Assembly (NCBI GenBank): GCA_903860135.1
Contig: CAIOPG010000017.1
Span: 11,364-75,363 of the forward strand
Source: Candidatus Omnitrophota bacterium
GTDB taxonomy: Bacteria; Omnitrophota; Gorgyraeia; Zapsychrales; Fredricksoniimonadaceae
Direction of reading: 5' to 3'
Length of the DNA: 64,000 nt
Below are positions 9,513 to 32,110 of the stretch, one piece after another. The notes under the pieces are model-generated. The model was not told the DNA's origin. It was given only the letters and a program-made list of their open reading frames with translations, and searched no databases. Each line of letters opens with the position of its first letter. The first letter of the stretch is position 1. The translations under genes were made by a program, and so were the position numbers.

Positions 9513-10595
9513 TTATACATTCTCCTGAAATGGCCGTAATTCCTTCAACCCTTTTAACTGATCCACCGTGCAACCGTCATCTTCGTTTCCGCGCGATAAC
9601 AATGCCTCCAACGGAATATCCGAGGTGAGCGTAAAACCCATATCACTGATCATGCGCAAGGTCCGGTTATCGGCAGCCCCCTTCGCATTCAAATACCCCT
9701 GCAAGAACAGCGAATTTGCCGCGTAGAGCCCCAGCGGCTCCAGCGAACGCAGATGCAGTTCCCGCCCGGCGGCCATCCTGATCTCTGCCGACGGGTTCAT
9801 CAGGCGGAACAGGCAGAGCACACGCAGACAATATTCAGGTGTCAACCCAACCGCCGCCTTGATGGCAATGCCGGCAACAGGAATCAGAAAGTTAACCGGA
9901 ATAGACGCTGCCCCGGCATCGCGCAGGGTCCGGGCCATGCCATAAACATCATCCGGCCCTTCGCCCATGCCAATGATCACGCCCGAACAAACCGGCAAGC
10001 CTGCCGTTTGGGCCGCCCGGAGCGTCCCCAGGCGATCCGCATAGGTATGACTCGTGCAAATGTACCGGTAGTACTTCTCGGATGTATTGATATTGTGATT
10101 CAGACGATCCAGTCCCGCTTCTTTTAATTGGCGCGCCTGATCCGTATTCACAACACCCGGTGACACGCAAACCTCCATATGGTGCCGGCGCTTGATCTCG
10201 CGGATCAACCGCACCAGATGAGCGATCCGGCTGTCCGAAGGCCCTGTCCCCGAAAACACCAGGCAGTAACGCCCGGCTCCGGCCGCATGGGCCGCGGCGG
10301 CCTCGGCATAAATTTCTTCATCAGACTTCATCGCGTACCCTTCGATCGGCGCCGATGATGACGCCGACTGCGCGCAATAACGGCAATCCTCCGGGCACAT
10401 CCCGTTCTGGACATTGTTGAGGATGTGCACCGTCACGGTCCTGCCAAAATACTGACGGCGGAACCGGTAAGCCAGCGCCAGCAATTCCATGGTGTCCAGC
10501 TGGTTGATATCCAGCATCCGAACGGCATCCTCGCGCGCGAGGACTTCTGATCGCGCGATCGCATCACCCATAACCTGATAATATTTGTCTTTCAT
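9513..10595 (-). CDS. bioB: Biotin synthase-family radical SAM enzyme
   Basis: CPEDCRYCAQS (BioB-type CxxxCxxC). LDRLNHNINTSEKYY...YADRLGTLRAAQTAGLPVCSGVIIGMGE aligns with E. coli BioB. Its TAA stop directly abuts the trxB ATG. Confidence 0.8.
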   Translation of the reverse strand: MKDKYYQVMGDAIARSEVLAREDAVRMLDINQLDTMELLALAYRFRRQYFGRTVTVHILNNVQNGMCPEDCRYCAQSASSSAPIEGYAMKSDEEIYAEAAAAHAAGAGRYCLVFSGTGPSDSRIAHLVRLIREIKRRHHMEVCVSPGVVNTDQARQLKEAGLDRLNHNINTSEKYYRYICTSHTYADRLGTLRAAQTAGLPVCSGVIIGMGEGPDDVYGMARTLRDAGAASIPVNFLIPVAGIAIKAAVGLTPEYCLRVLCLFRLMNPSAEIRMAAGRELHLRSLEPLGLYAANSLFLQGYLNAKGAADNRTLRMISDMGFTLTSDIPLEALLSRGNEDDGCTVDQLKGLKELRPFQENV

Positions 10596-10675: not shown

Positions 10676-12457
10676 ATGACAACAGCACACACATTCCACA
10701 TACCCGTCATGGGGACCTCATTCACCATAGATTCACCTATCCGGGTGGCTCGCTATGGCATTTCATCGGTCATTTCACTGGTCGATGACAACCTGATCGA
10801 AGATGTCCGTAAGTTTTACGCCGCGCGTTATAAAGAACCGTTCACTCCCATCAAGAAATTTGACGAAGACTGGCGTGCGCGCCGGATCACCGAATATCTG
10901 AACCTTGTCAACCGCATTGTCGGTCAACAAACAGCAGATGTCCGCGCCGCAGCTTTCGAGCCCGGTTCCGAGATCACCCGTTATTTCGACCTCATCCCCG
11001 ATGAATCAGCGTCCAAAAAACTTTACAAACGCATGCTCGATACGCAAGATGCCTCAGCACGTCAGGCACTTCAGGATGAGTTGCGCACTCATGTCATCGC
11101 GGGGCGTATCGATGTCAACATCATGACCAAGCTTGATAAGCCCAATGTGGACCGTAACGGAAATCTTTTGTCTGAAGAATTCTCCGACGCCTTGTCTGCC
11201 CTGCGCGGATTTGCCCAAAGCACGATCAACGGTGCCATCGAACTCTCGGCCGGATTTAACCGCCGCCTTTACACCTATATTGAAGAATTTGCTGATTTCT
11301 ATGCTGATGCGGTCGGAGACTTCAAGAAAGAGATCATCCTTAAAGTGAGCGATTACCGTTCCGCCATCACCCAGGGAAAATTTCTTGCCCGCAAAGGCCT
11401 TTGGGTATCCGAGTTCCGCATCGAATCCGGACTGAATTGTGGCGGTCATGCTTTTGCCGGATCGGGCAATCTGATGGGACCTGTCCTTGAGGAATTCAAA
11501 CAAAAGCGCCAAGAGCTCATCAGCCAACTTGACGGCTTCTGCCGTGAAGCCCTCAAATTAAAAGACAGGATCGTGCCTTCCGCCCCGCTTTCTTTCCGTG
11601 TTACCGCGCAAGGCGGTATCGGTACTGCCCAGGAAGACACGTTCCTCAAGCGTTATTACGGCTTGACAACAACCGGCTGGGGATCTCCCTTCTTACTCGT
11701 TCCCGAAGCGGTGCAGATTGACAAAGATACACACCAGAAACTCGCCGCTGCCGGTGAAGATGACCTTTTCCTGAGCAACGTTTCCCCGCTCAATGTGGCC
11801 TTCAACAATCTGCGCAATTCCCTCAGTGAATTAAGGCGCTGTGAAATGATCACCGCGGGGACCCCCGGCAGCCTGTGCGTCTTAGGCCACCTGGCAACCA
11901 ATACAGAATTTACAAAGAATCCCGTATGTACCGCTTCGCGCACCTATCAAAAATTAAAACTTGAAGCTCTTAGAGCACTGGGACTGCCCCGGGAAGAATA
12001 CGAACGACAGGCCGCCAAGATCACGGACAAAGCCTGTGTATGCGCCCAACTCGGTGATAGTTTCTACAAGAATACGCTTCAGGACAAGCTCACTGGTTCT
12101 TTCCCTGCTGTATGCCCGGGGCCCAATATCGCCTATTTCAACCGTGCCGCCACGCTCAAGGAAATGATCGATCATATTTACGGCCGGATCAATATTATGC
12201 CCTTCCCCAACCGTCCCCATATGTTCATCAAGGAACTGAAACTGAACCTCAACCAGTTCGCCGAACTTTACGCCAACAAGAAACAAGAGGACGCCGAACG
12301 CAAAGACCCGGTCCGCGATGAGTTCCGGCAGAACCTCGAAGAAGGCATCACCTATTACCGCCAACTGATACCACAGATCATCGAAGAAACAGAAGCCTTC
12401 CGCGCCAGGATGCTCCAGGAACTCGACCTCTGCACCCAACGCCTCGCCACGCTGTAA
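10676..12457 (+). CDS. Conserved hypothetical protein, 593 aa (possible TIM-barrel flavin oxidoreductase-like region)
   Basis: Long uninterrupted ORF divergent from bioB. The internal segment GGIGTAQEDTFLKRYYGLTTTGWGSPFLLVPEA resembles the GGI...GT.F..PE FMN-binding motif of nitronate-monooxygenase/FabK-type enzymes. Function unknown. Confidence 0.7.
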   Translation: MTTAHTFHIPVMGTSFTIDSPIRVARYGISSVISLVDDNLIEDVRKFYAARYKEPFTPIKKFDEDWRARRITEYLNLVNRIVGQQTADVRAAAFEPGSEITRYFDLIPDESASKKLYKRMLDTQDASARQALQDELRTHVIAGRIDVNIMTKLDKPNVDRNGNLLSEEFSDALSALRGFAQSTINGAIELSAGFNRRLYTYIEEFADFYADAVGDFKKEIILKVSDYRSAITQGKFLARKGLWVSEFRIESGLNCGGHAFAGSGNLMGPVLEEFKQKRQELISQLDGFCREALKLKDRIVPSAPLSFRVTAQGGIGTAQEDTFLKRYYGLTTTGWGSPFLLVPEAVQIDKDTHQKLAAAGEDDLFLSNVSPLNVAFNNLRNSLSELRRCEMITAGTPGSLCVLGHLATNTEFTKNPVCTASRTYQKLKLEALRALGLPREEYERQAAKITDKACVCAQLGDSFYKNTLQDKLTGSFPAVCPGPNIAYFNRAATLKEMIDHIYGRINIMPFPNRPHMFIKELKLNLNQFAELYANKKQEDAERKDPVRDEFRQNLEEGITYYRQLIPQIIEETEAFRARMLQELDLCTQRLATL

Positions 12458-15155: not shown

Positions 15156-18100
15156 TCATTGCTTCAAAAATTGTAGCAAATTATCCATGGGTACAATATC
15201 GTGAATAATAGGCGTAAAACCTGGCGCGTCGATGTATTGCTTCAGCATCATCGGATCCGGAGCGAATTGAAGAAAGGCTTCCTGCGGACCTGATGCTACG
15301 GCCTGTGCGGCACGGTTTAAATCAATACCGCCGTCACGCGCAACAGCGGCTTGATCAAGATTAGCTATCGTGGCTCTCACCAAAGGCTCAAGATAACCGA
15401 AATCAATCGATGCGATCTCTTGACTGAAATACTTGTTCAACAGCAAAATATGCGGCACATAAAAAGAGATAGGATTCGGAAACTGCCCTTCAAACAACTT
15501 TTTTACTAAAGATGCAACAGATTCAACCGCGTATTGACGCCAATTGGCTCCAAAATCTCTTCCCTCGATCGGCTCAGCCACCCATAAACGATGAAACTGC
15601 TCACTATCACCGCTGATTACTGCTAATAAGACCTGCATGAAGATCAATTCTGCCTGGCTACTAAGAGAACGCGAACTTCCAACCTCGTGACGTATTTTAA
15701 ACAAAACACGCTCAATAAGTATCTGACTTAAAGACATCGTATTAATATTACCCGCGATTATGTAGTCGGTCCAATAGAGAGACTTCTCCTTCTCTGTAAA
15801 ATAAAAGCCATAGTTATCCCCATAAACCTCTCCTAATAAATTAATATAAAATCGATTATGTCTTGAAAAAAAGAAGCCTGGCACTCTTTCGGAAGCACCG
15901 GCAAGTTCCTGCGCGGCACCCTCCTTAAAAACATGGAACACGCGCACCCGATGATCATCAGCCGCTTGTTCAAGCCCGTATTTCTTTATGCTCGCTTTAG
16001 TATCGCTCCCACGCATAAATGCAGAATAATACTTAGCCTGAATAACCTGCTCCTGATGCAATTGTTCCGTCACAGTAACAAGATCCTTGATCTCCCGCCC
16101 TTGAACGCGTAACATTTCTTTGGCATGATCGTCATCCACCGAAAAGACCCATACAATATTTTTCGGCAGATCCTTGAACATGGCGCGTGCCGCATCTATG
16201 TTCTGCGGGACAAGGATCCCGTTGGTGATCACATATACTTCTGTCGCGGCTGTTGACGCGGCTTTAAGGACTTCAATAAAATCTTCTGACAAACCGCCTT
16301 CGTTCATTTTCTTTTTGCCAAAAACCATAGTCTCACCGGGGCCGAGCAGGCGGATGCGATCAGCGCCATGCACCATGTCTATCCTTCTCAGTATCTCCTC
16401 TTTCGAAAGTTCTCCGTTAGACCCAGCCTCCTTGCGCAGATTGGCTGCAATGCACATAGGGCAGTTGAACGGACACCGGGCTGTCAGCATCAGGCTGAAA
16501 TCATTCCTTAGCGAAGCTTCGTAAGGATAAAGAAAATTGATCAACTCAAAGGCTCTTGTAACAGGAGATTTCTTTTCCTCCTGTTTAAGAACCTCTGCTT
16601 TCATATGGGGGATATCAATAAGATCCAACACGCTTGTGACCATCGACTTCCCGGATGTTGTTACTCCTTTGGGAATCTCCACGGTCCTAACAAGTTCCTG
16701 AAATCCCTGAAAACGGCGCTCGATCAATACCTTCCAAAATAATCTTTTCTGCTCGGAGGGTTTATACCTTTTACTGCTCGACAGGCATTTCGACAGAGCC
16801 TCAGAAGTTAAGAAAGACTCCTGCCTTGAAAGGTAAGCGATAAATGCTTTGCTATCATTTATTTCTTTCAAAAGAGATCCGAACTCGTAACTTGTATTGA
16901 AATCAACCGCTGGAATAGGTAAACGGGGGCGCTGGTTATCATCATCATTTGAAAAACCCTCTTGCATTAAAAGCATGGCCAACACCGGGAACATTGAGGT
17001 TCGATATTGCTCGTATATCTTCATGTAATCATCACGAGAAAGATGGTTACGTTCCCTGTCATTAGGAAAAACAAATGTAAGTCGCGTATTCCAAGGCATA
17101 TCTGATAGTGATCGTCCTTGTTGATTGAAATAAGACTGCAAAGCTCTCTTGATATCCTTCTCATTAAGATATGGTGTCATGATCGAACGAACAACTATTT
17201 CCTGATACACCGCCCAAACAGATTTCCAACTATCGTCGGCATCGCCTGCAAGTTCCCAAAGGCCACTACTTACAAGGTAATCATGGAACATTTCAGGAGT
17301 TAAATGCAACAAATGCCGCTTGGCATCCCTCAGTTTTATCGGATCAAGCGTATCCATTGCATTGAGCCAGCCAACCACATCATTGGGGGCAATGACCGCT
17401 GCCTCGGCACGGTTTGCTCCCGCATGAACAAGTTGAAGCCCGGGGATGGTATTGACCGCCTCAGGGGGAATCACGTTAATTGGGGTGTTATCCGCCCCCA
17501 GGACAATCCCTCCTGAAAAATATTTCCTCGGCACCATCTCCCCGTCCAGAGGATCGCGTTCTTCACGGACAAGATTGACTTCTCCCCGGTGGAATGCCTC
17601 AACATAACGCGCCCATATCTTCTCCGGCATTTTCAGGTCATCAATATCCACACCCGCCACTTTATTGCGGCTCACATACGTTCTTTCCAAAATACTGCCC
17701 CTGACCTTGCGTTTATACCACCCGGCAAGGATCACGGCATAACAAATCTGGCGAAGCCGCGCAAAAGCCCTGTCCTGATTGACCGCACGTTCAAGCTCTG
17801 GTAAAACAGCTTCCCTTAAGACTTGAGCTGCCAGATCCATTGCTTTTCCGGAAACGACCTTACTGGCTTTCGTGAGAACAGAATGTTCAAGGGCGGCATA
17901 ATCACTTTCCAGCATGACCTTCAGATGACAACCAGCCACATACACGCGATCCTTGTTTTCGGACACACGCGCCTCATCGGGGATGATCCAGACTTTGTTA
18001 AACACATCCAAGGGGATATCCGTTGTGCCAAACTTCTCAAAAGCCCTGGCGTATATCTTTGCCCAGAAAGCCTTGCCCGACGTCACGTCAGGGTGCAGTA

Positions 18101-18524
18101 GCCGTGATGCCACTTGTTTCAAGGTAAGATCCTGGTCCAAAAGATCGCGGCCCATTTCTGTCCTGCCAAAAGCCGGGGGCATAATGCGCCCTTTTTCATA
18201 GGGGCTGAGGTTAACCCATAGATCACCATCGGGCACCGTGAGCGCTGTCAGGAAATATTTGATCGCACGATTAGCTTCGGCGTTTAATCCAGGCACAGCC
18301 ACCGACGAACCAGGATCGAGGATAAAATCAAACTCCAAGGGATCATCCAAATGAACTTTCAACCCCCGTAATAATGGAAGATTATCCGCCAAGGCCGTAA
18401 CCGGACGGATCGAAGGAAGCATAGCGGGGATCCCTTGGGCCAAAGCTGGTGGCACAAGGCTGGTTGAGATAAAAGCCAGAAGTACCCCCACGCATAAAAT
18501 TCTTTTGATCAACAAACTAACCAT
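15156..18524 (-). CDS. Giant (~1,122 aa) low-GC protein with N-terminal Sec-type signal peptide and an embedded radical SAM core; function unknown
   Basis: The track ORF begins at a GTG codon (18531-18533, reverse strand); the ATG at 18522-18524, codon 4 of that ORF, is the likely start, preceded by the SD AGGTGAGGGGG. N-terminus MVSLLIKRILCVGVLLAFISTSLVPPALA|QG has an AXA cleavage site. Mid-protein CPFNCPMC (CxxxCxxC), then LLGPGETMV (GGE-like) and VYVITNGILV (TNG motif). GC is about 38-40%, versus 52-62% in neighbouring genes. Confidence 0.85.
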   Translation of the reverse strand: MVSLLIKRILCVGVLLAFISTSLVPPALAQGIPAMLPSIRPVTALADNLPLLRGLKVHLDDPLEFDFILDPGSSVAVPGLNAEANRAIKYFLTALTVPDGDLWVNLSPYEKGRIMPPAFGRTEMGRDLLDQDLTLKQVASRLLHPDVTSGKAFWAKIYARAFEKFGTTDIPLDVFNKVWIIPDEARVSENKDRVYVAGCHLKVMLESDYAALEHSVLTKASKVVSGKAMDLAAQVLREAVLPELERAVNQDRAFARLRQICYAVILAGWYKRKVRGSILERTYVSRNKVAGVDIDDLKMPEKIWARYVEAFHRGEVNLVREERDPLDGEMVPRKYFSGGIVLGADNTPINVIPPEAVNTIPGLQLVHAGANRAEAAVIAPNDVVGWLNAMDTLDPIKLRDAKRHLLHLTPEMFHDYLVSSGLWELAGDADDSWKSVWAVYQEIVVRSIMTPYLNEKDIKRALQSYFNQQGRSLSDMPWNTRLTFVFPNDRERNHLSRDDYMKIYEQYRTSMFPVLAMLLMQEGFSNDDDNQRPRLPIPAVDFNTSYEFGSLLKEINDSKAFIAYLSRQESFLTSEALSKCLSSSKRYKPSEQKRLFWKVLIERRFQGFQELVRTVEIPKGVTTSGKSMVTSVLDLIDIPHMKAEVLKQEEKKSPVTRAFELINFLYPYEASLRNDFSLMLTARCPFNCPMCIAANLRKEAGSNGELSKEEILRRIDMVHGADRIRLLGPGETMVFGKKKMNEGGLSEDFIEVLKAASTAATEVYVITNGILVPQNIDAARAMFKDLPKNIVWVFSVDDDHAKEMLRVQGREIKDLVTVTEQLHQEQVIQAKYYSAFMRGSDTKASIKKYGLEQAADDHRVRVFHVFKEGAAQELAGASERVPGFFFSRHNRFYINLLGEVYGDNYGFYFTEKEKSLYWTDYIIAGNINTMSLSQILIERVLFKIRHEVGSSRSLSSQAELIFMQVLLAVISGDSEQFHRLWVAEPIEGRDFGANWRQYAVESVASLVKKLFEGQFPNPISFYVPHILLLNKYFSQEIASIDFGYLEPLVRATIANLDQAAVARDGGIDLNRAAQAVASGPQEAFLQFAPDPMMLKQYIDAPGFTPIIHDIVPMDNLLQFLKQ

Positions 18525-18721
18525 CCCCCTCACCTTTCATCAATGAAGAAGTGTTATATTTATTACGGCAATAGGACAAATCATGGGTAATAAACGAATT
18601 GTGCGCTGATTATTAAGACTATTAAAAAAATCCGAGATTAAATGCTATCCACCTGAACTTCAGATATAACCATAACATTTAACCCGCATTCTTTCAATAC
18701 GGGTTCTGCGCAACAGCCCGC
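18525..18721 (-). promoter_or_regulatory. AT-rich (~190 bp) upstream region of the giant gene containing its RBS and probable promoter
   Basis: The only long AT-rich intergenic tract in this gene string. Strong SD (AGGTGAGG) 6-7 nt before the ATG. On the minus strand there is a possible -35/-10 pair, TTGAAA-N17-TATGGT (about 18669-18697). No experimental support. Confidence 0.4.
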
Positions 18722-22777: not shown

Positions 22778-24430
22778 TCAAGCACCCTTTCGTTGTACAA
22801 CCTGAGGCGGCACCGTGATCCTGACCACAAAAGCATCGCCCACCTTGGCCAGCAATTCCGCAGGGAATCCGTTCCGGCGGCAAGCTGCTTCAAGGCTCTC
22901 CCATGTATGATCATTGACGATCCCATAACTGACCGGCTGGCCCTGCAAGAAAGCAAACAGCTTCTCATCCGTATTCAGGTCAGGCACAGGGTGCGGGCTG
23001 AAGAAATTGGCATTACTGAAATTCAACAGGACCACATCCCTGCCGGAATAATACTTCACCGCCCGTATAAAGAACTTCGACGCCATGATCTTCCCGTCCA
23101 TCGCGGGCTGCTGCATCAAATAGGCCACGGCGGCCTGCGATGAAACATAAGGATCGATCTGCCGGCTTGCCGTTAATGCCAGGAACAGGAGCAAGGGCAC
23201 CTGCAACCCGAAAAGATAAACAGCGCGGCGGATATTATTTTGCAGAAACAGACTGCCGATGATCACAAGAAAAAGTATCTCAACCATCATGATAGCGCCA
23301 AGATGCAACGGTTCCGGAAGGTACGCAGGATATTTTTCACCCGCCACAAAGATCAATACCGGGACGAACAAAAAGAACACAAATGTCGTTACCTCCATCC
23401 AGCCAGGGCGCTTGAGTTGATCCAGCCGCTCCGTCAAATACGGACCGGCCAGCAATGCCAGCGCAGGGAACAAAGGAAAAATATAACTCACCAGCTTGGA
23501 ATGCGCCGGCTGAAAAACAACCAGCACCACGACGATCCATACCAAAAGGAACTGCTCGAATGGCTCTGCTTTTTTATCCAGTGAAGCTTTGATCGCCATC
23601 CATAGTGAAACGGCAACAGCGAGGATCCAGGGAAACATACAGCCGAGCATGGCTCCCGGATAAAAATACCAGCGGTCATTGGACCTGTGCTCCGCCGATA
23701 GCAAGCGCCGCCAGTGATCATTATAAAAAAATTCATGCGTGAACCCGTGGCCATAAAGTTTGCACATGAGCGCGTACCATGGCAAGGCGATCACAACCCC
23801 CATGAACAAGCCGATCCAGAAAGCTTTTGTTAACAGGAATTTCTGCTCCCCCCGCCATAAGAGGAAGATCAGGACCGTTATCAGCGGGATGGCAAAACCC
23901 AAAGGCCCTTTGGTCAGTACCGCCAGCGCCGCAAAAACATGGAACAAGATAAGCCCGATCGTCTTACGTCCCGGCGACCGATAAGCGGCATAGAACGCCG
24001 TGAGTGCCAGCAAAATAAAGACAGAAAAGATCATGTCGGTGAACACGGTCTTGGCCAGTCCGATATAAAGGGCCGAAGTCATGAGGATAAAAGCCCCCAT
24101 GAACGCTTTGCGCTGGTCGGCATGAAACAAGCGGCCCAGAAAATACACGGTCAACACGCCCAACAGCGCGAACAAGGCCGGAAAAAATCGGGCGGCAAAC
24201 GGCGTCTGCCCAAACATTAGAAAACCGGCACGGATCAGATCATACGTCAGGACAGGCTTTTCAAACTGCGGTTGACCAAATATATACGGCGTTACCCATG
24301 TCCCGGCTGTCGCCATTTCCTTGGCCGTTCCGGCATAGAAAACCTCGTCAGGATTTGTTAATGGAAGAACATTATTCCCACCGAAGAAAATAACAGCCGC
24401 CAATAAAGACAGGATGATGATATGCCGCAT
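22778..24430 (-). CDS. GT39-family (ArnT/PMT-like) polyprenyl-phosphate-sugar-dependent glycosyltransferase, GT-C fold
   Basis: N-terminal NPDEVFYAGTAKEMATAGTWVTPYIFGQPQFEKPVL matches the ArnT/PMT first periplasmic loop (DE..Y..A.EM...G.W..P..G.PYF.KPPL). Multi-TM, 550 aa. Confidence 0.8.
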   Translation of the reverse strand: MRHIIILSLLAAVIFFGGNNVLPLTNPDEVFYAGTAKEMATAGTWVTPYIFGQPQFEKPVLTYDLIRAGFLMFGQTPFAARFFPALFALLGVLTVYFLGRLFHADQRKAFMGAFILMTSALYIGLAKTVFTDMIFSVFILLALTAFYAAYRSPGRKTIGLILFHVFAALAVLTKGPLGFAIPLITVLIFLLWRGEQKFLLTKAFWIGLFMGVVIALPWYALMCKLYGHGFTHEFFYNDHWRRLLSAEHRSNDRWYFYPGAMLGCMFPWILAVAVSLWMAIKASLDKKAEPFEQFLLVWIVVVLVVFQPAHSKLVSYIFPLFPALALLAGPYLTERLDQLKRPGWMEVTTFVFFLFVPVLIFVAGEKYPAYLPEPLHLGAIMMVEILFLVIIGSLFLQNNIRRAVYLFGLQVPLLLFLALTASRQIDPYVSSQAAVAYLMQQPAMDGKIMASKFFIRAVKYYSGRDVVLLNFSNANFFSPHPVPDLNTDEKLFAFLQGQPVSYGIVNDHTWESLEAACRRNGFPAELLAKVGDAFVVRITVPPQVVQRKGA

Positions 24431-27723: not shown

Positions 27724-29520
27724 TTATTTAACAGGAACATCACGCCCCAGCTTACGCTGAATGTCCCGGATCATCCCACTAAAACGTGCGTCCGCAGGCG
27801 CCAGTGCCAGGCCCTTTTCAAGCCAGGCAAGGCTTTCGGCGTAACGCGCTTCATTGGCCAGCATAACGCCCAGCAGTAAATAGGGCTCAAGGTACTGCGG
27901 ATCCATCGCCTGACACCGTTCAAGCATGGTCCTGGTCTTTCCGGAAATTCCATTGTCAAAAAAGATATAACATAGTTGAAAAAGATCCTGCTGACTTGTT
28001 CCTTCGCGGACAAGCGTGCGCATGATCTCATCTGCCAGGGCAACATCCCCATTCTTTTCATACGCCACTGCCAGCTTGCAAAGAAGAATACGTTTTTCAG
28101 GCGCGCGTTTTTCAGAACGCACCAGCAGTTTGATCACACGGATAGCTCTGGCATTGGCATTGATCTTCAAATGCCAGTCCGCCAGGAATGACATTTGTGA
28201 AATAAGCGGTTCCTGGATCTCCATATCTTTTTCAAAAGAAAAAAGCCCCTCGAGGGTTTCCAGAGCGATCGTATTGTTCGGGGACTTATTCAACCAGTTA
28301 AGGCAATAACTGATATCATTGCGCCCGACGGGAATATGCCGGAATGTCATGGCAAGCAAAAAGATCGTAATAGCCGTAATAAAAGTAACAAAAAGATACT
28401 TGTTACAAAACCCCTGCATCCGCTGGATCGCTGACGCCACGATCAGGAAAAACCCGATAGACGAAAAGTAAAACCAGTAGGGTTCAACCACAAACCCCAT
28501 CTGCGGACGGCATATCGATCCGGGGATAACAAATAAAAGTCCACTCATAAAGACGGCCAGTCCTAGGCCTTCCGTATTCGGCTTGGGGTTACGCCATATC
28601 AGCCAGCAAAAACTAGCCGTAAAAGAAACGCATGCCATATTCCATAGCCAGATAAAGCTCTTGACCGGTAGCATATTGAACATAAAAACAATATCAGTCG
28701 GGAGGAAAAGATTGCTGATATACCACTTGATCAAAATAAAGAAATTCGCCACAAAAACCCAAAAGGTCAAATGAAAAGAATGCGCCCTTTCGAGCATGCT
28801 CGTCTTTGAACCAGCCAACCACAACCACGTAATGACACATACCCCTGTCAACAAGATGAACGGCAGGCAAAGGCGCAGGGTTTTCTTGACATCAGCAGTC
28901 CTGTAATAAAGAAAAGCAGCGGCATAAAAGATAAAAAACCACGAAACCTCCTGAAACAAAAGCGCGACAAAGAATGACGCAAGGCTCAGCCCATAAAAAA
29001 CATGGTTCTTGCTTTGTTCAATATGTTTGTACAGAGCGATGAGGCTTAATTCCATGAAAATGACACTGAACAGGATATTATTGAATGCAATATGCATCAT
29101 CACTTCAGCACTCATGGGATGCATACAAAAAAGCAGGCTTGTGCCCAGCGCGACAAAATATTGCCGGGTGAAAAGGAAGATAACAACGAACAATAAATAA
29201 CAATTAATGAAGAAAAGAAAGATATTGATACCATACAGCGGCCCCGCCTCTTTAAAAAGAGAAAAAAGAATGCCGTTGGTCAAATTATACAGGGGTTCGA
29301 AATGATGCGTGCGGGCAAAAATAAGCCCCGGCTCCCTGAATATCCGGGATACTTCATGAAAACGCAGAAAAAAGAAATCATCCCCCAGGAATTGATGCTG
29401 CAAGACCGGGGTGTACACTAAAAGGCACAGGACAAATAACAATGCCGCGGGCAAAAATATTTTTATTCTTTCACTAATAAACATGGGTGTCAGTATATTA
29501 CATTGCACCCGCTTGTCCAA
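27724..29520 (-). CDS. Polytopic membrane protein with C-terminal TPR repeats (TMTC/PMT-like GT-C candidate)
   Basis: Roughly 11 predicted TM segments in the N-terminal 430 aa. C-terminal TPR-like repeats (…KLAVAYEKNGDVALADEIM…YLLLGVMLANEARYAESLAWLEKGLALAP). GC is about 38-42%. Confidence 0.75.
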   Translation of the reverse strand: MDKRVQCNILTPMFISERIKIFLPAALLFVLCLLVYTPVLQHQFLGDDFFFLRFHEVSRIFREPGLIFARTHHFEPLYNLTNGILFSLFKEAGPLYGINIFLFFINCYLLFVVIFLFTRQYFVALGTSLLFCMHPMSAEVMMHIAFNNILFSVIFMELSLIALYKHIEQSKNHVFYGLSLASFFVALLFQEVSWFFIFYAAAFLYYRTADVKKTLRLCLPFILLTGVCVITWLWLAGSKTSMLERAHSFHLTFWVFVANFFILIKWYISNLFLPTDIVFMFNMLPVKSFIWLWNMACVSFTASFCWLIWRNPKPNTEGLGLAVFMSGLLFVIPGSICRPQMGFVVEPYWFYFSSIGFFLIVASAIQRMQGFCNKYLFVTFITAITIFLLAMTFRHIPVGRNDISYCLNWLNKSPNNTIALETLEGLFSFEKDMEIQEPLISQMSFLADWHLKINANARAIRVIKLLVRSEKRAPEKRILLCKLAVAYEKNGDVALADEIMRTLVREGTSQQDLFQLCYIFFDNGISGKTRTMLERCQAMDPQYLEPYLLLGVMLANEARYAESLAWLEKGLALAPADARFSGMIRDIQRKLGRDVPVK

Positions 29521-29578: not shown

Positions 29579-32110
29579 TTGCGAAGGATAACAAAAACCT
29601 ATAAAGTAAAGCCTATGAAAAAACAAAATCCTGCTAAAGTGATCGCTTGGTTCATCTGCGCCCTCATCGCCCTGTGCATCGGCCTTTACTTCCGGCTTTA
29701 TCCTTTGTACCACAATGTGGCTTCTGACGCCTACGAGCAAGCGACCATGCTGGTTCTTGCCAAAATGCGCGCTGATATTGCGGGGCAAATCTCCAGTGCC
29801 TATCCGACTCTACCACCTGCCCAACAGCAACGGATCATCCAGGAACAGTTAAACCAGGCCCTCCGGACACAAAAAACAAAACTGCACGAGACGTTTGACA
29901 AAGTAAGCCGGGAAATACTCAAAAAGACCGGTGAGACCCGTCATTACCTTCAGGAATCCGATTCTTACTATTTTCTCGACCTGACACAAAACATCCTTGA
30001 AAAAGGCGATGTGAGTACCCAGGTGAACGGCAGTCAATATTTTAATAACCGCATGCTTGCCCCCATCGGCTACTGGGAACCGCAGACATGGCACCCGTAT
30101 ATCGGTGCATGGGTCTACAAAGCCGCAAAAGCATTGAACCCGGATATCGACGTCATGCGGGGCGTTGCGTTCACACCGCTGTTCCTTTTTCCTTTCATCC
30201 TGGGTGCTTTTTTCCTGGCCTGCCGTGCCTTTGGCTGTCAATGGCCTGCGGCTTTCACCGCATCGATCTTTTTCGCCCTTGCCCCCATTTACCTCCAGCG
30301 CAGTACCTATGCCTGGTATGATAACGACTCCTACAGCGTTTTATTCCCCCTGCTCAACATGGGGCTTACAGTCCTGGCATTAAAGTCGCTGGATAACACA
30401 CGCAAAGCCCTGATCTGGAGCGTTCTCGCCGGACTTTCGTTTGCCCTCTTCGCCCGCTTCTGGACCGGATGGAGCTTTTCCTGGGGCATCGCCATGGCCG
30501 CGCTCAGCCTCATGACCGTACGCGCCTATTTCTTTAAAGAACCGCGTCGCCACAATCTTGCCCTGGTGCTTCTCATGACCGGTGCCATCACCCTGACCTG
30601 TCTCACGGCCATGATCGGCTTAAACCAGTTCCTCGCCCTTTTCCCTCTGGCCGCCCAGGAACTCGGCAAATTCATTGCTCCCCGGCTCAAGGACTGGCCG
30701 GACCTTTTCATTGTTGTCGGTGAACTTCGCCGCGGTACAATGGCTGAATCTGTCATGCTGACCGGTGGTCCTGTTGTTTTTTATGGTGCCCTTGCCGCTT
30801 TCTTCATTTACGCCCGCGAGGCGGTCATCAAACATAAAAGCCCGTCGAATGCCATACTCCTGCTGGCTTTCTTTACAGGTGCCACCTTCCTGCTGGCCTT
30901 GAGTGCCGAACGCTTCGCGCTTCTTCTGTTAGCTCCGCTTTCCATTGCTTTTGCGGTTGCCCTCGAACAACTCTGGCAACGGCGCCGGCTCTGGGCAGAA
31001 AGACTCAAACTCCCCAATCAAACCATGGCCAAATCTTTGCTGTTACTATTTTTTATGGGAACCATCATCCCGTTGACAGCAACAAACCAGAATATCGCTT
31101 CATTCCTGCATCCCATCTTCAACTCCGCCTGGGACCGCGCCCTGACAGCCCTGCGCGAGAAGACACCCGAAAACAGCGTCATCAACACCTGGTGGTCTCC
31201 CGGGCACTTTGTCAAAGCTATCGCGCGGCGCAGCGTCACCTTCGACGGCGCATCCATTAAAGGCGAACAAGCCTACTGGCTGACAAAAGTTTATCTGAGC
31301 CCCAATGAAGAAGATGCCCTGGGGATCCTGCGTATGCTTAACACCAGCTCTAACCAGGCGTGTGAATGGTTGCAGGCCCTTGGCTGGCCGGTATCACGCG
31401 CCACAGCCTTGCTTGAAACGATCACACGCATGCCGCGCACCGACGCCAGCCATTACCTGAACGGTATCCTGAGCCCGGTGCAAGCCGCGGCCTTGCTTAA
31501 ACTGACGCATGGCACGCCGCCGCCTTCTTATCTGCTTATCTATAACGAAATCGTGGAAGGTAATGTCCTGCTCGGTTATGTCGGTAAATGGGATTTTACC
31601 CGCATCGAACAATTAAATGCCACCCCCGCCGCACTGAAAAAGATCCCCTCCCGGAGTTCCAAGAATTACATCGACTTCCTCTGGAGCTTAGTCGGCGGGC
31701 CGCTTCGCCAGAGCGAAACACTTTCCCCTGCCGGACGCAATGGCTCCAAGATCCTTTTTGACCAGGGCATGATCCTCGACACCGCTGATATGACGGTCGA
31801 GATCAATTCCCCCAAATTCGGCCGTGGCATCCCTGCGTCGGTGGTTTACCTGGACCCCGCCACCAACCGTGTGCAACAAAAAACGCTCCCCAACGCCACA
31901 ATGAGTTATAGTGCGGTGATCTTCAAGGACAACAACAACATCCCCCACGGCGTGCTCATGGATTCGTTGCTGGCCAATTCACTCATCATGAAATTGTATT
32001 ATTTTAACGGCCAAGGCCTCACGTATTTCAAACCTTTCGCCAAGGAACAAGACCTGAGTGGCCGCACAAAAATCTTGATCTACGCCGTCCAATGGCCGGC
32101 GGGATTTTGA
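29579..32110 (+). CDS. STT3/PglB/AglB-like oligosaccharyltransferase-family membrane protein (degenerate WWDYG motif)
   Basis: 843 aa with a multi-TM N-terminal half. At about residue 540, INTWWSPGHFVKAIARRSVTFDGASIKG is collinear with PglB [23 protein letters not shown] (WW-xx-G…V…T..DG). Divergent from the rest of the island. Confidence 0.7.
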   Translation: MRRITKTYKVKPMKKQNPAKVIAWFICALIALCIGLYFRLYPLYHNVASDAYEQATMLVLAKMRADIAGQISSAYPTLPPAQQQRIIQEQLNQALRTQKTKLHETFDKVSREILKKTGETRHYLQESDSYYFLDLTQNILEKGDVSTQVNGSQYFNNRMLAPIGYWEPQTWHPYIGAWVYKAAKALNPDIDVMRGVAFTPLFLFPFILGAFFLACRAFGCQWPAAFTASIFFALAPIYLQRSTYAWYDNDSYSVLFPLLNMGLTVLALKSLDNTRKALIWSVLAGLSFALFARFWTGWSFSWGIAMAALSLMTVRAYFFKEPRRHNLALVLLMTGAITLTCLTAMIGLNQFLALFPLAAQELGKFIAPRLKDWPDLFIVVGELRRGTMAESVMLTGGPVVFYGALAAFFIYAREAVIKHKSPSNAILLLAFFTGATFLLALSAERFALLLLAPLSIAFAVALEQLWQRRRLWAERLKLPNQTMAKSLLLLFFMGTIIPLTATNQNIASFLHPIFNSAWDRALTALREKTPENSVINTWWSPGHFVKAIARRSVTFDGASIKGEQAYWLTKVYLSPNEEDALGILRMLNTSSNQACEWLQALGWPVSRATALLETITRMPRTDASHYLNGILSPVQAAALLKLTHGTPPPSYLLIYNEIVEGNVLLGYVGKWDFTRIEQLNATPAALKKIPSRSSKNYIDFLWSLVGGPLRQSETLSPAGRNGSKILFDQGMILDTADMTVEINSPKFGRGIPASVVYLDPATNRVQQKTLPNATMSYSAVIFKDNNNIPHGVLMDSLLANSLIMKLYYFNGQGLTYFKPFAKEQDLSGRTKILIYAVQWPAGF

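Follow-up and report, generated by a model that had tools for sequence, protein, structure and literature searches.

A radical-SAM enzyme clade within a family of modular Omnitrophota proteins bearing predicted Sec signal peptides

A stretch of 64,000 nucleotides from a Candidatus Omnitrophota bacterium (assembly GCA_903860135.1, contig CAIOPG010000017.1, positions 11,364 to 75,363 of the forward strand; hereafter the window) was analyzed with respect to one long gene on its minus strand, 15156..18533, which encodes a protein of 1,122 amino acids (aa). According to sequence comparison, this protein carries a domain of a new clade of radical S-adenosylmethionine (SAM) enzymes within a new family of Omnitrophota proteins that are modular and bear predicted signal peptides. 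It is not a one-off giant but a member of an Omnitrophota-specific family of thousands, in which conserved termini surround swappable cargo.

An initial annotation of the window had described a single reading frame with 1,122 codons from its ATG, a Sec signal peptide and an embedded radical-SAM core. The open reading frame (ORF) was found on the minus strand and was supported by a Shine-Dalgarno-like sequence and by identical proteins. Protein P0001 (1,122 aa, 100% identical) was present on five contigs, up to 426 kb long, of independent assemblies, and the gene is therefore not an assembly artifact. The features of the gene and its product are as follows.

15156..18533, minus strand: whole ORF, 1,125 codons from GTG 18533; likely start ATG 18524, giving 1,122 aa; stop codon 15156-15158.
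18530..18535, minus strand: AGGTGA, resembling a Shine-Dalgarno sequence, at a distance of 5 nt upstream of ATG 18524-18522; identified by direct reading.
18438..18533, minus strand: predicted Sec signal peptide, aa 1-32; n-region with R2, K10 and R11, h-region ILCVGVLLAFISTSLV, c-region PPALA, predicted cleavage A32|Q33.
17499..18437, minus strand: conserved N-terminal module (N-module), aa 33-345, ending in invariant ...PRKYFSGG; 45-57% identical to at least 119 listed relatives with unrelated cargo.
16584..17498, minus strand: orphan region, aa 346-650, for which helices are predicted at low confidence; common only to orthologues P0002 and P0003, from about aa 545.
15684..16583, minus strand: divergent radical-SAM domain, aa ~651-950; the model shows six beta-alpha units.
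16452..16475, minus strand: CxxxCxxC motif CPFNCPMC (C687, C691, C694), predicted to bind a [4Fe-4S] cluster; invariant in every homologue aligned.
16332..16343, minus strand: GPGE (aa 731-734), equivalent of the SAM-binding "GGE", at the end of beta2 (strand from the model); G733 and E734 invariant.
16218..16226, minus strand: TNG (aa 770-772), end of beta3, as in viperin and MoaA-type enzymes; T770 invariant; aligns to "ITNG" of viperin-like 9dfn.
16125..16142, minus strand: SVDDDH (aa 798-803), candidate ribose-binding motif, beta4; D800 and H803 invariant, S798 kept in at least 90%.
15354..15683, minus strand: helical linker, aa 951-1060, present only in the closest orthologues.
15159..15353, minus strand: conserved C-terminal family tail (C-tail), aa 1061-1125, in 108/120 matches, ending 0-25 aa from the C-terminus.
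17496-17510 (aa 342-346) and 15315-15332 (aa 1068-1073), minus strand: Gly-Gly junctions.

The radical-SAM core is, as judged from the alignments, genuine but divergent, single-cluster, and in possession of all its catalytic motifs. The three signatures named in the initial annotation, CPFNCPMC, GPGE and TNG, were all located and were invariant or near-invariant in homologues; all three cysteines, and not merely two of them, were invariant across the clade. These invariant columns held in the three orthologues and about 30 clade representatives, with an overall identity of only 23-41%.

Profile searches of the region gave a graded picture. Radical_SAM (PF04055) was the only Pfam match of the query, with 22.6 bits for the full length and 25.8 bits for the domain alone, which is below the gathering threshold of 29.5 bits. 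However, 18 of 21 clade members matched this model at E ≤ 0.01, and 9 of the 12 scanned as whole proteins exceeded the gathering score (34.9-55.8 bits). Membership of the query in the superfamily holds by transitive homology, because homologous members of its clade pass Pfam. When the clade profile was compared with the PDB, 21 sequences matched, all of them radical-SAM enzymes (viperin-like, AbmM, Tes, YydG/EpeE, MoaA, SkfB). NCBIfam gave weak matches of the query to W-cofactor maturase, viperin and MoaA equivalogs, and every score remained far short of the respective cutoff.

In the AlphaFold model, aa 678-881 formed the six beta-alpha units of a (beta/alpha)6 fold, with a predicted local distance difference test score (pLDDT) of 75-92. 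The full-length model reached a pLDDT of only 57. The best PDB matches found by Foldseek were EpeE, DesII, AbmM, viperins, MiaB and PFL-AE (E 2e-3 to 5e-2); these E-values are weak because the remainder of the full-length model is poor.

Two closer assignments were tried and rejected. Viperin/pVip was dismissed with 21.4 bits against a cutoff of 180 for NF038283 and a PADLOC pVip match (E 5e-6) over the core only, and MoaA or the SPASM-twitch group with 17.5 bits against a cutoff of 284 for the MoaA model. No cysteine follows C694 in the query, and hence an auxiliary cluster of the SPASM, twitch or MoaA type is absent. From sequence, the domain is assigned to a new, Omnitrophota-restricted clade of the radical-SAM superfamily that is neither viperin nor MoaA. 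The substrate may be a nucleotide or a nucleotide-sugar, as weak similarity to viperin, MoaA and DesII would suggest.

The clade was delimited by a HMMER search with aa 381-1060 against 1.84 billion representatives, which returned 41 relatives with homology confined to aa ~650-1000. Many of these were internal domains of proteins of 2,000-7,500 aa, and those with names were all from Omnitrophota. Such internal domains occur in P0122 (5,052 aa), P0127 (5,475 aa), P0134 (6,938 aa) and P0135 (7,503 aa), all Omnitrophota proteins. The sampled long proteins with this domain had neither the N-module nor the C-tail, and several had hydrophobic N-termini.

Compared with the radical-SAM superfamily (PF04055) and its single-cluster cores of the viperin/MoaA-like type, the query domain shares CxxxCxxC after beta1, G-x-G-E after beta2, TNG after beta3 and the modeled (beta/alpha)6 fold. 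Unlike free cytoplasmic radical-SAM enzymes, it is embedded in a multidomain protein with a signal peptide, belongs to a clade with its own specific N-terminal helix, and scores below the Pfam and NCBIfam cutoffs.

A search of 5.8 billion proteins yielded at least 2,398 matches to the protein as a whole, nearly all from metagenome-assembled genomes (MAGs) of Candidatus Omnitrophota, which shared only about 30% of the query. Local BLAST confined the shared parts to aa 4-345 (45-57% identity) and aa 1065-1123 (30-48% identity). Both modules were present in 108 of 120 matches, at the extreme N- and C-termini, and were separated by 215-1,536 aa of unrelated sequence. Among the listed matches, family members measured about 630-1,950 aa, with one cargo block each. 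Of these, only P0002 and P0003 had the radical-SAM cargo of the query, with every motif kept.

The N-module directly follows the signal peptide and contains about 45 invariant columns, including WVNLSPYE, FGxTEMGRDLL and PRKYFSGG. Modeled alone from 75 sequences (pLDDT 73, predicted template modeling score 0.65), it was predicted to combine a pair of long beta-hairpins with several 20-25-residue helices. It matched nothing in Pfam, NCBIfam, PADLOC or PHROGs; its profile found no relative in the PDB, where matches were limited to low-complexity cargo columns, and its model matched nothing in BFVD. An internal repeat was likewise not detected within it (hhalign probability 4%). The motif WVNLSPYE holds an N-x-S sequon (aa 108-110; 18204-18212, minus strand), invariant in 119 aligned relatives, and N-glycosylation of an exported N-module is conceivable, given the STT3 homologue encoded 11 kb away.

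At the other end, aa 1068-1123 of the query aligned to the tails of 108 of the 120 relatives, with the consensus kGGIDLTp..m.Lqtqn.G.gIkFniDPAMLqQLQNAPGFtPVIInIQP...L..FLG. No Pfam or NCBIfam model matched the C-tail, type IX secretion system (T9SS) sorting domains included.

The initial view that most of the protein belongs to no recognizable family holds to the extent that no curated Pfam or NCBIfam family covers most of its length. Its "670 aa of unknown sequence" before the core can now be divided into the signal peptide (1-32), the N-module (33-345) and the orphan region, predicted to be helical (346-650). The "300 aa" after the core correspond to the remainder of the ~300-aa radical-SAM domain (to about 950), the helical linker and the conserved 60-aa family tail.

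The cargo is bounded by invariant Gly-Gly pairs, in P0002-P0120 as in the query. On the N side these occur as a degenerate ...YFSGG-phi-[DN]-[LF] (phi, hydrophobic) and on the C side as a strict GG-I-D-[LF]/GGIDL, often with a "D.AM" element close by. The pairs may be scars left when cargo was inserted into a protein that had been contiguous, may be double-glycine processing sites, or may be coincidental. Processing was considered because C39 peptidase domains are common in the giant proteins of Omnitrophota.

Pfam analysis of the family revealed a very broad cargo. It included SAM methyltransferases, GNAT, protein kinase, CheR, GT1/starch synthase, phosphoribosyltransferase (PRTase) and poly(A) polymerase. 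Also present were PPDK_N/PEP-utilizers, phosphoglycerate kinase (PGK), 6-phosphogluconolactonase, EPSP-synthase-like domains, HATPase_c, HAD, metallophosphoesterase and PLD. Helix-turn-helix (HTH), DnaJ, HEAT/TPR and B12-binding radical SAM domains were found as well. Nearly all of this cargo consists of enzymes or binding domains of the cytoplasmic type; typical extracellular hydrolases were absent from the Pfam cargo of the family, and no cargo-less member was seen among the hits checked.

The distribution of the family was followed by a pattern scan of GTDB species genomes, which gave at least 587 confirmed loci, nearly all in Omnitrophota. The best 80 loci were spread over 45 MAGs, and a single MAG could contain five of them or more. 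In 13 of these 80, an adjacent second copy lay on the same strand, representing tandem paralogues with different cargo.

Loci with tandem paralogues: L002 (6148-7038 and 11064-11954), L018, L022, L030, L015, L043, L029, L039, L074, L058, L070, L067 and L061.

Hidden Markov models (HMMs) of the modules were run over all ORFs of the related GTDB loci. Among complete ORFs, 54 had both modules, nine the N-module only and four the C-tail only; one C-only ORF that was examined lies downstream of an N-module match and looks like part of a split gene. Neither module occurred twice in a single ORF. The idea that the giant proteins of the phylum are tandem arrays of such units was not supported, since no ORF had more than one N- or C-module and the sampled long radical-SAM-bearing proteins had neither. 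The gene call of orthologue P0002 (L083, 2675-5833) lacks a signal peptide and overlaps an upstream ORF of 906 aa (1-2721) by 47 nt, which may reflect a frameshift or a mis-called start.

Conserved ends around variable centers are also found in structural proteins, such as spidroins, whose N- and C-terminal domains drive polymerization. A structural or scaffold family is accordingly a further explanation, in which the bookends would polymerize into a surface layer or matrix and the enzyme folds would serve as non-catalytic ligand-binding modules. The great diversity of the cargo and the lack of a conserved operon would suit such a role. Yet the catalytic residues of the radical-SAM domain (three Cys, GxGE, TNG, SVDxxH) are invariant in a clade of low overall identity, which points to selection for catalysis, and a scaffold is regarded as very unlikely.

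The initial annotation had also proposed a Sec signal peptide, and the N-terminus indeed obeys the residue rules of Sec and signal peptidase I (SPase I), in a pattern kept family-wide (about 110 relatives). The query has a single hydrophobic segment (aa 1-33), with K/R residues before it and PPALA|QG after it, and a Kyte-Doolittle (KD) hydropathy of up to 2.3 in the hydrophobic window. A positive n-region (R2/K10/R11), an h-region within 10-20 aa and small residues at -3 and -1 (A30-L-A32|Q33) were all present.

Among 120 family members, position -3 was A, S or V in 108, position -1 was A in 105, and position +1 was Gln in 93, as it is in the query (Q33, 18435-18437, minus strand). The pre-sequence had a median length of 29 aa. 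Complete N-termini were available for 111 members, of which 104 had an n-region with a net positive charge. The conserved small -3/-1 residues and the +1 Gln were located 4-6 residues after a Pro/Gly-rich c-region. Members with B12-binding radical-SAM cargo had the same Sec-type N-termini.

Twin-arginine translocation (Tat), which would be expected for exported cofactor-containing enzymes, was ruled out by the missing consensus S/T-R-R-x-F-L-K: the query has no RR, and a fortuitous RR occurred in 8 of 120 relatives, the full consensus in none. No lipobox for signal peptidase II was recognized, as no Cys lies near the cleavage site. The frequent Gln at +1 resembles the Q-rule of Bacteroidetes, where Gln follows the cleavage site of SPase I substrates and pyroglutamate N-termini result; this rule was reported as Bacteroidetes-specific (PMC5837995).

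With a genuine radical-SAM core behind a family-wide Sec-type N-terminus, the paradox of an exported radical-SAM enzyme, as pointed out in the initial annotation, appears to stand. Through the family, the paradox widens beyond a single radical-SAM enzyme and takes in many domains that depend on ATP, SAM or DNA.

The main rival explanation avoids export altogether. The hydrophobic segment would be an uncleaved N-terminal anchor, the body of the protein would remain in the producer's cytoplasm, and the modules would organize enzymes on the inner membrane. Such tethering would effortlessly explain cargo that is wholly of the cytoplasmic type, including HTH, DnaJ and B12-binding radical SAM. Radical-SAM enzymes require assembly of the iron-sulfur (Fe-S) cluster and a reductant, a dependence that also favors tethering, and the cytoplasmic supply of SAM, ATP and Fe-S would be at hand. 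A contrast case in the same window, a canonical BioB/ThiH-like radical-SAM gene (Radical_SAM and BATS; 9513-10595, minus strand; 56.9% GC), encodes no hydrophobic N-terminus, and the anchor of the query would on this comparison be a deliberate addition. Of the long proteins of Omnitrophota, 46% have transmembrane (TM) segments and no signal peptide, and for these a membrane-anchored, cytoplasm-facing reading, which likewise supports a tether, has been argued (2026 preprint, 10.64898/2026.06.07.730766).

The features of the N-terminus itself speak another language. The positive-inside rule predicts an N-in/C-out orientation in 104 of 111 members; the small -3/-1 residues, the +1 Gln and the Pro/Gly-rich c-region form a signature of cleavage and not of an anchor; and the query has no second hydrophobic segment that would bring the chain back into the cytoplasm. 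A tethered cytoplasmic enzyme is thus considered unlikely, while it is the most probable of the competing explanations.

The signal-peptide features would fit equally well with a periplasmic or cell-surface enzyme of an anaerobic producer that modifies envelope glycans or proteins, with the chassis anchoring it to the envelope. The gene lies among genes for polysaccharide synthesis and protein glycosylation: UDP-glucose dehydrogenase, epimerase, GT2, PEGA, PMT, PIG-L, GHL10 and an STT3 homologue. The last of these is an 843-aa ORF with an STT3 oligosaccharyltransferase domain (PF02516, 5e-18) at 29579-32110 on the plus strand, and the PMT/PMT_2 protein is encoded at 22778-24430 on the minus strand. 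Sugar-modifying radical-SAM enzymes (DesII, AprD4) were among the fold matches, and in anoxic habitats the oxygen problem would presumably disappear.

To our knowledge, however, the periplasm holds neither SAM nor a low-potential reductant nor Fe-S assembly. The orthologues P0002 and P0003 lie outside glycan loci, and domains typical of envelope-active proteins are absent from the family cargo. This explanation is accordingly judged improbable, more so than tethering.

A foreign or artifactual gene, acquired recently by horizontal transfer or produced by a chimeric assembly, was suggested by base composition. The initial annotation had given a GC content of 38-40% against 52-62% for the neighbors and inferred foreign origin. 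The measured GC content was 46.8% (44-48% in 1-kb windows) against a window mean of 52.4% and 52-59% for neighboring genes. A deficit does exist: GC at third codon positions (GC3) was 47.7% against a median of 61.7%, the lowest among window ORFs of at least 300 aa. It resides in the cargo part (43-45%), whereas the N-module, with 51%, is near-genomic.

Translation initiation factor IF-2 encoded in the window was closest to Omnitrophota IF-2, and together with the Omnitrophota-wide distribution of the family this makes the gene and its family native to the phylum, with no need for foreign origin. Identical protein on five contigs of different assemblies, the restriction of both the family and the radical-SAM clade to Omnitrophota, and the retention of the entire architecture in P0002 and P0003 lead to the same result, and a foreign or artifactual gene is essentially excluded.

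The explanation that is tentatively preferred, as a possibility held with less than even confidence, is modular effector delivery by analogy with other systems: a Sec-exported chassis would display or deliver enzyme cargo, possibly into host or prey cells. The pre-protein would be exported by Sec and cleaved at ALA|Q, and the N-module and C-tail would together be a chassis used by all members, serving to retain or assemble the protein or to pass it on by further secretion. The radical-SAM cargo would then act outside the producer's cytoplasm, most plausibly inside an attached host or prey cell, whose cytoplasm would supply SAM, reductant and Fe-S assembly.

Delivery is preferred because the cargo depends on SAM, ATP, DNA or the assembly of Fe-S clusters, because Omnitrophota have traits of host dependence or predation, and because the giant proteins of the phylum share the same repertoire. 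Ultra-small cells with host-dependent or predatory traits have been described for Omnitrophota (PMC10066038). The giant proteins have the same Pfam repertoire, carry signal peptides or TM segments, and adjoin loci of type II secretion systems (T2SS) or Tad (10.1101/2023.11.21.568195; 10.64898/2026.06.07.730766).

Several points weigh against delivery. The signal-peptide call was rule-based, applying Sec/SPase I residue rules to the query and 120 aligned family N-termini. The full-length AlphaFold2 model, with the C-tail at low confidence, was uninformative on the packing of the N- and C-terminal modules, and the role of the N-module as a chassis we purely infer, its fold having no recognizable match. 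Sec translocates unfolded chains, and the [4Fe-4S] cluster would therefore have to be inserted after export, for which no precedent was found in a limited literature search. For some of the cargo (PGK, EPSP-synthase-like domains and 6-phosphogluconolactonase), a role in housekeeping metabolism seems more natural than one as effector.

Genomic context provided no help. The initial annotation had suggested looking for homologues and their conserved neighborhoods; homologues were found in abundance, whereas a conserved neighborhood was not. No conserved operon or partner gene was found, the three orthologues (the query, P0002 and P0003) being situated in unrelated neighborhoods. In 80 loci, no secretion or processing gene recurred beside family members; the commonest neighbor was a REC-EAL protein, in 9 of the 80. 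With unrelated orthologue neighborhoods and no recurrent neighbor, there is no operon logic to exploit.

A bolder form of the delivery reading is doubtful. It would have a phylum-wide, Sec-exported bookend chassis, thousands strong, place ordinary cytoplasmic enzymes, including a radical-SAM enzyme matured after export, into the cytoplasm of host or prey, and the Gly-Gly junctions may in that case serve cargo release.

Comparison with known systems revealed partial likenesses. In MARTX and polymorphic toxins, conserved termini flank variable enzymes meant for the cytoplasm of a target cell, and many paralogues differ only in cargo. The bookend family shares the conserved terminal regions and variable cargo, a likeness that is architectural only, analogous and not homologous. 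Unlike these toxins, it shows no sequence or fold relationship to them, has an N-terminal Sec signal, and often carries metabolic rather than overtly toxic cargo, with delivery being conjectural. Neither RTX repeats nor a cysteine protease domain nor trafficking domains of type I, V, VI or VII secretion systems (T1SS, T5SS, T6SS, T7SS) were found, the query having no Pfam or NCBIfam matches outside the radical-SAM core.

T9SS cargo proteins carry a conserved C-terminal sorting domain (CTD) of about 60-80 aa. Those of Bacteroidota also resemble the family in an SPase I signal with +1 Gln (PMC5837995, PMC10653852), a functional region that varies between proteins and a terminal domain that is conserved at the C-terminus. 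They differ in phylum, in that the C-tail matches no T9SS sorting model, and in that the bookend family has an extra N-module of 310 aa. Moreover, T9SS cargo consists of extracellular hydrolases and adhesins, whereas the bookend cargo consists of ATP- or SAM-dependent enzymes.

The closest likeness in cargo was to the giant "multi-enzyme" or Dockerin-type proteins of the same phylum (West-Roberts et al. 2023 preprint; 2026 complete-genome preprint). Their repertoire includes HATPase_c, Radical_SAM, PPDK_N, HAD_2, GT1, GNAT, methyltransferases and HEAT, and most have signal peptides or TM segments. Unlike the bookend family, which is shorter and has a single cargo block, the giants measure at least 10,000 aa and string many domains together; the family is not described in these two sources (10.1101/2023.11.21.568195, 10.64898/2026.06.07.730766). 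A limited literature search found no description of an N-module/C-tail family in work on Omnitrophota giant proteins, nor did curated domain libraries contain one, and a search of the same limited kind found no report of a Sec-exported radical-SAM enzyme.

Some further observations concern the window itself. Two long ORFs could be placed in no family. A 598-aa ORF at 27724-29520 on the minus strand had 44.9% GC, the second-lowest in the window, and only sub-threshold TPR matches. A 593-aa ORF at 10676-12457 on the plus strand, one of the few long genes on that strand, had no Pfam match. GC skew was negative in each 1-kb window over positions 1-64000, and nearly all long ORFs lay on the minus strand, a pattern that fits a single replichore whose genes strongly favor one strand.

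Two features make the family attractive for experimental work. The N-module is a compact domain (about 310 aa) with a fold unmatched in PDB and BFVD, and members of about 1,000 aa are small enough to serve as a tractable model for giants of 10,000 to more than 100,000 aa that otherwise resist study.

One would expect radical-SAM enzymes, kinases, SAM-dependent methyltransferases and DNA-binding domains to work in a cytoplasm, and at least 2,398 proteins of one phylum place such domains behind a conserved, cleavable-looking Sec signal and between a pair of conserved orphan modules. Either the rules by which signal peptides and topology are read fail systematically in Omnitrophota, or cytoplasmic enzymes are exported on a large scale. 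If export is true, it would provide a molecular handle on how uncultured, ultra-small, apparently host-dependent bacteria manipulate other cells, and it may help to account for the same enzyme repertoire in the giant proteins of Omnitrophota. Should delivery into host or prey also prove true, the family would represent a new class of inter-cellular effector system and would include the first exported radical-SAM enzyme.

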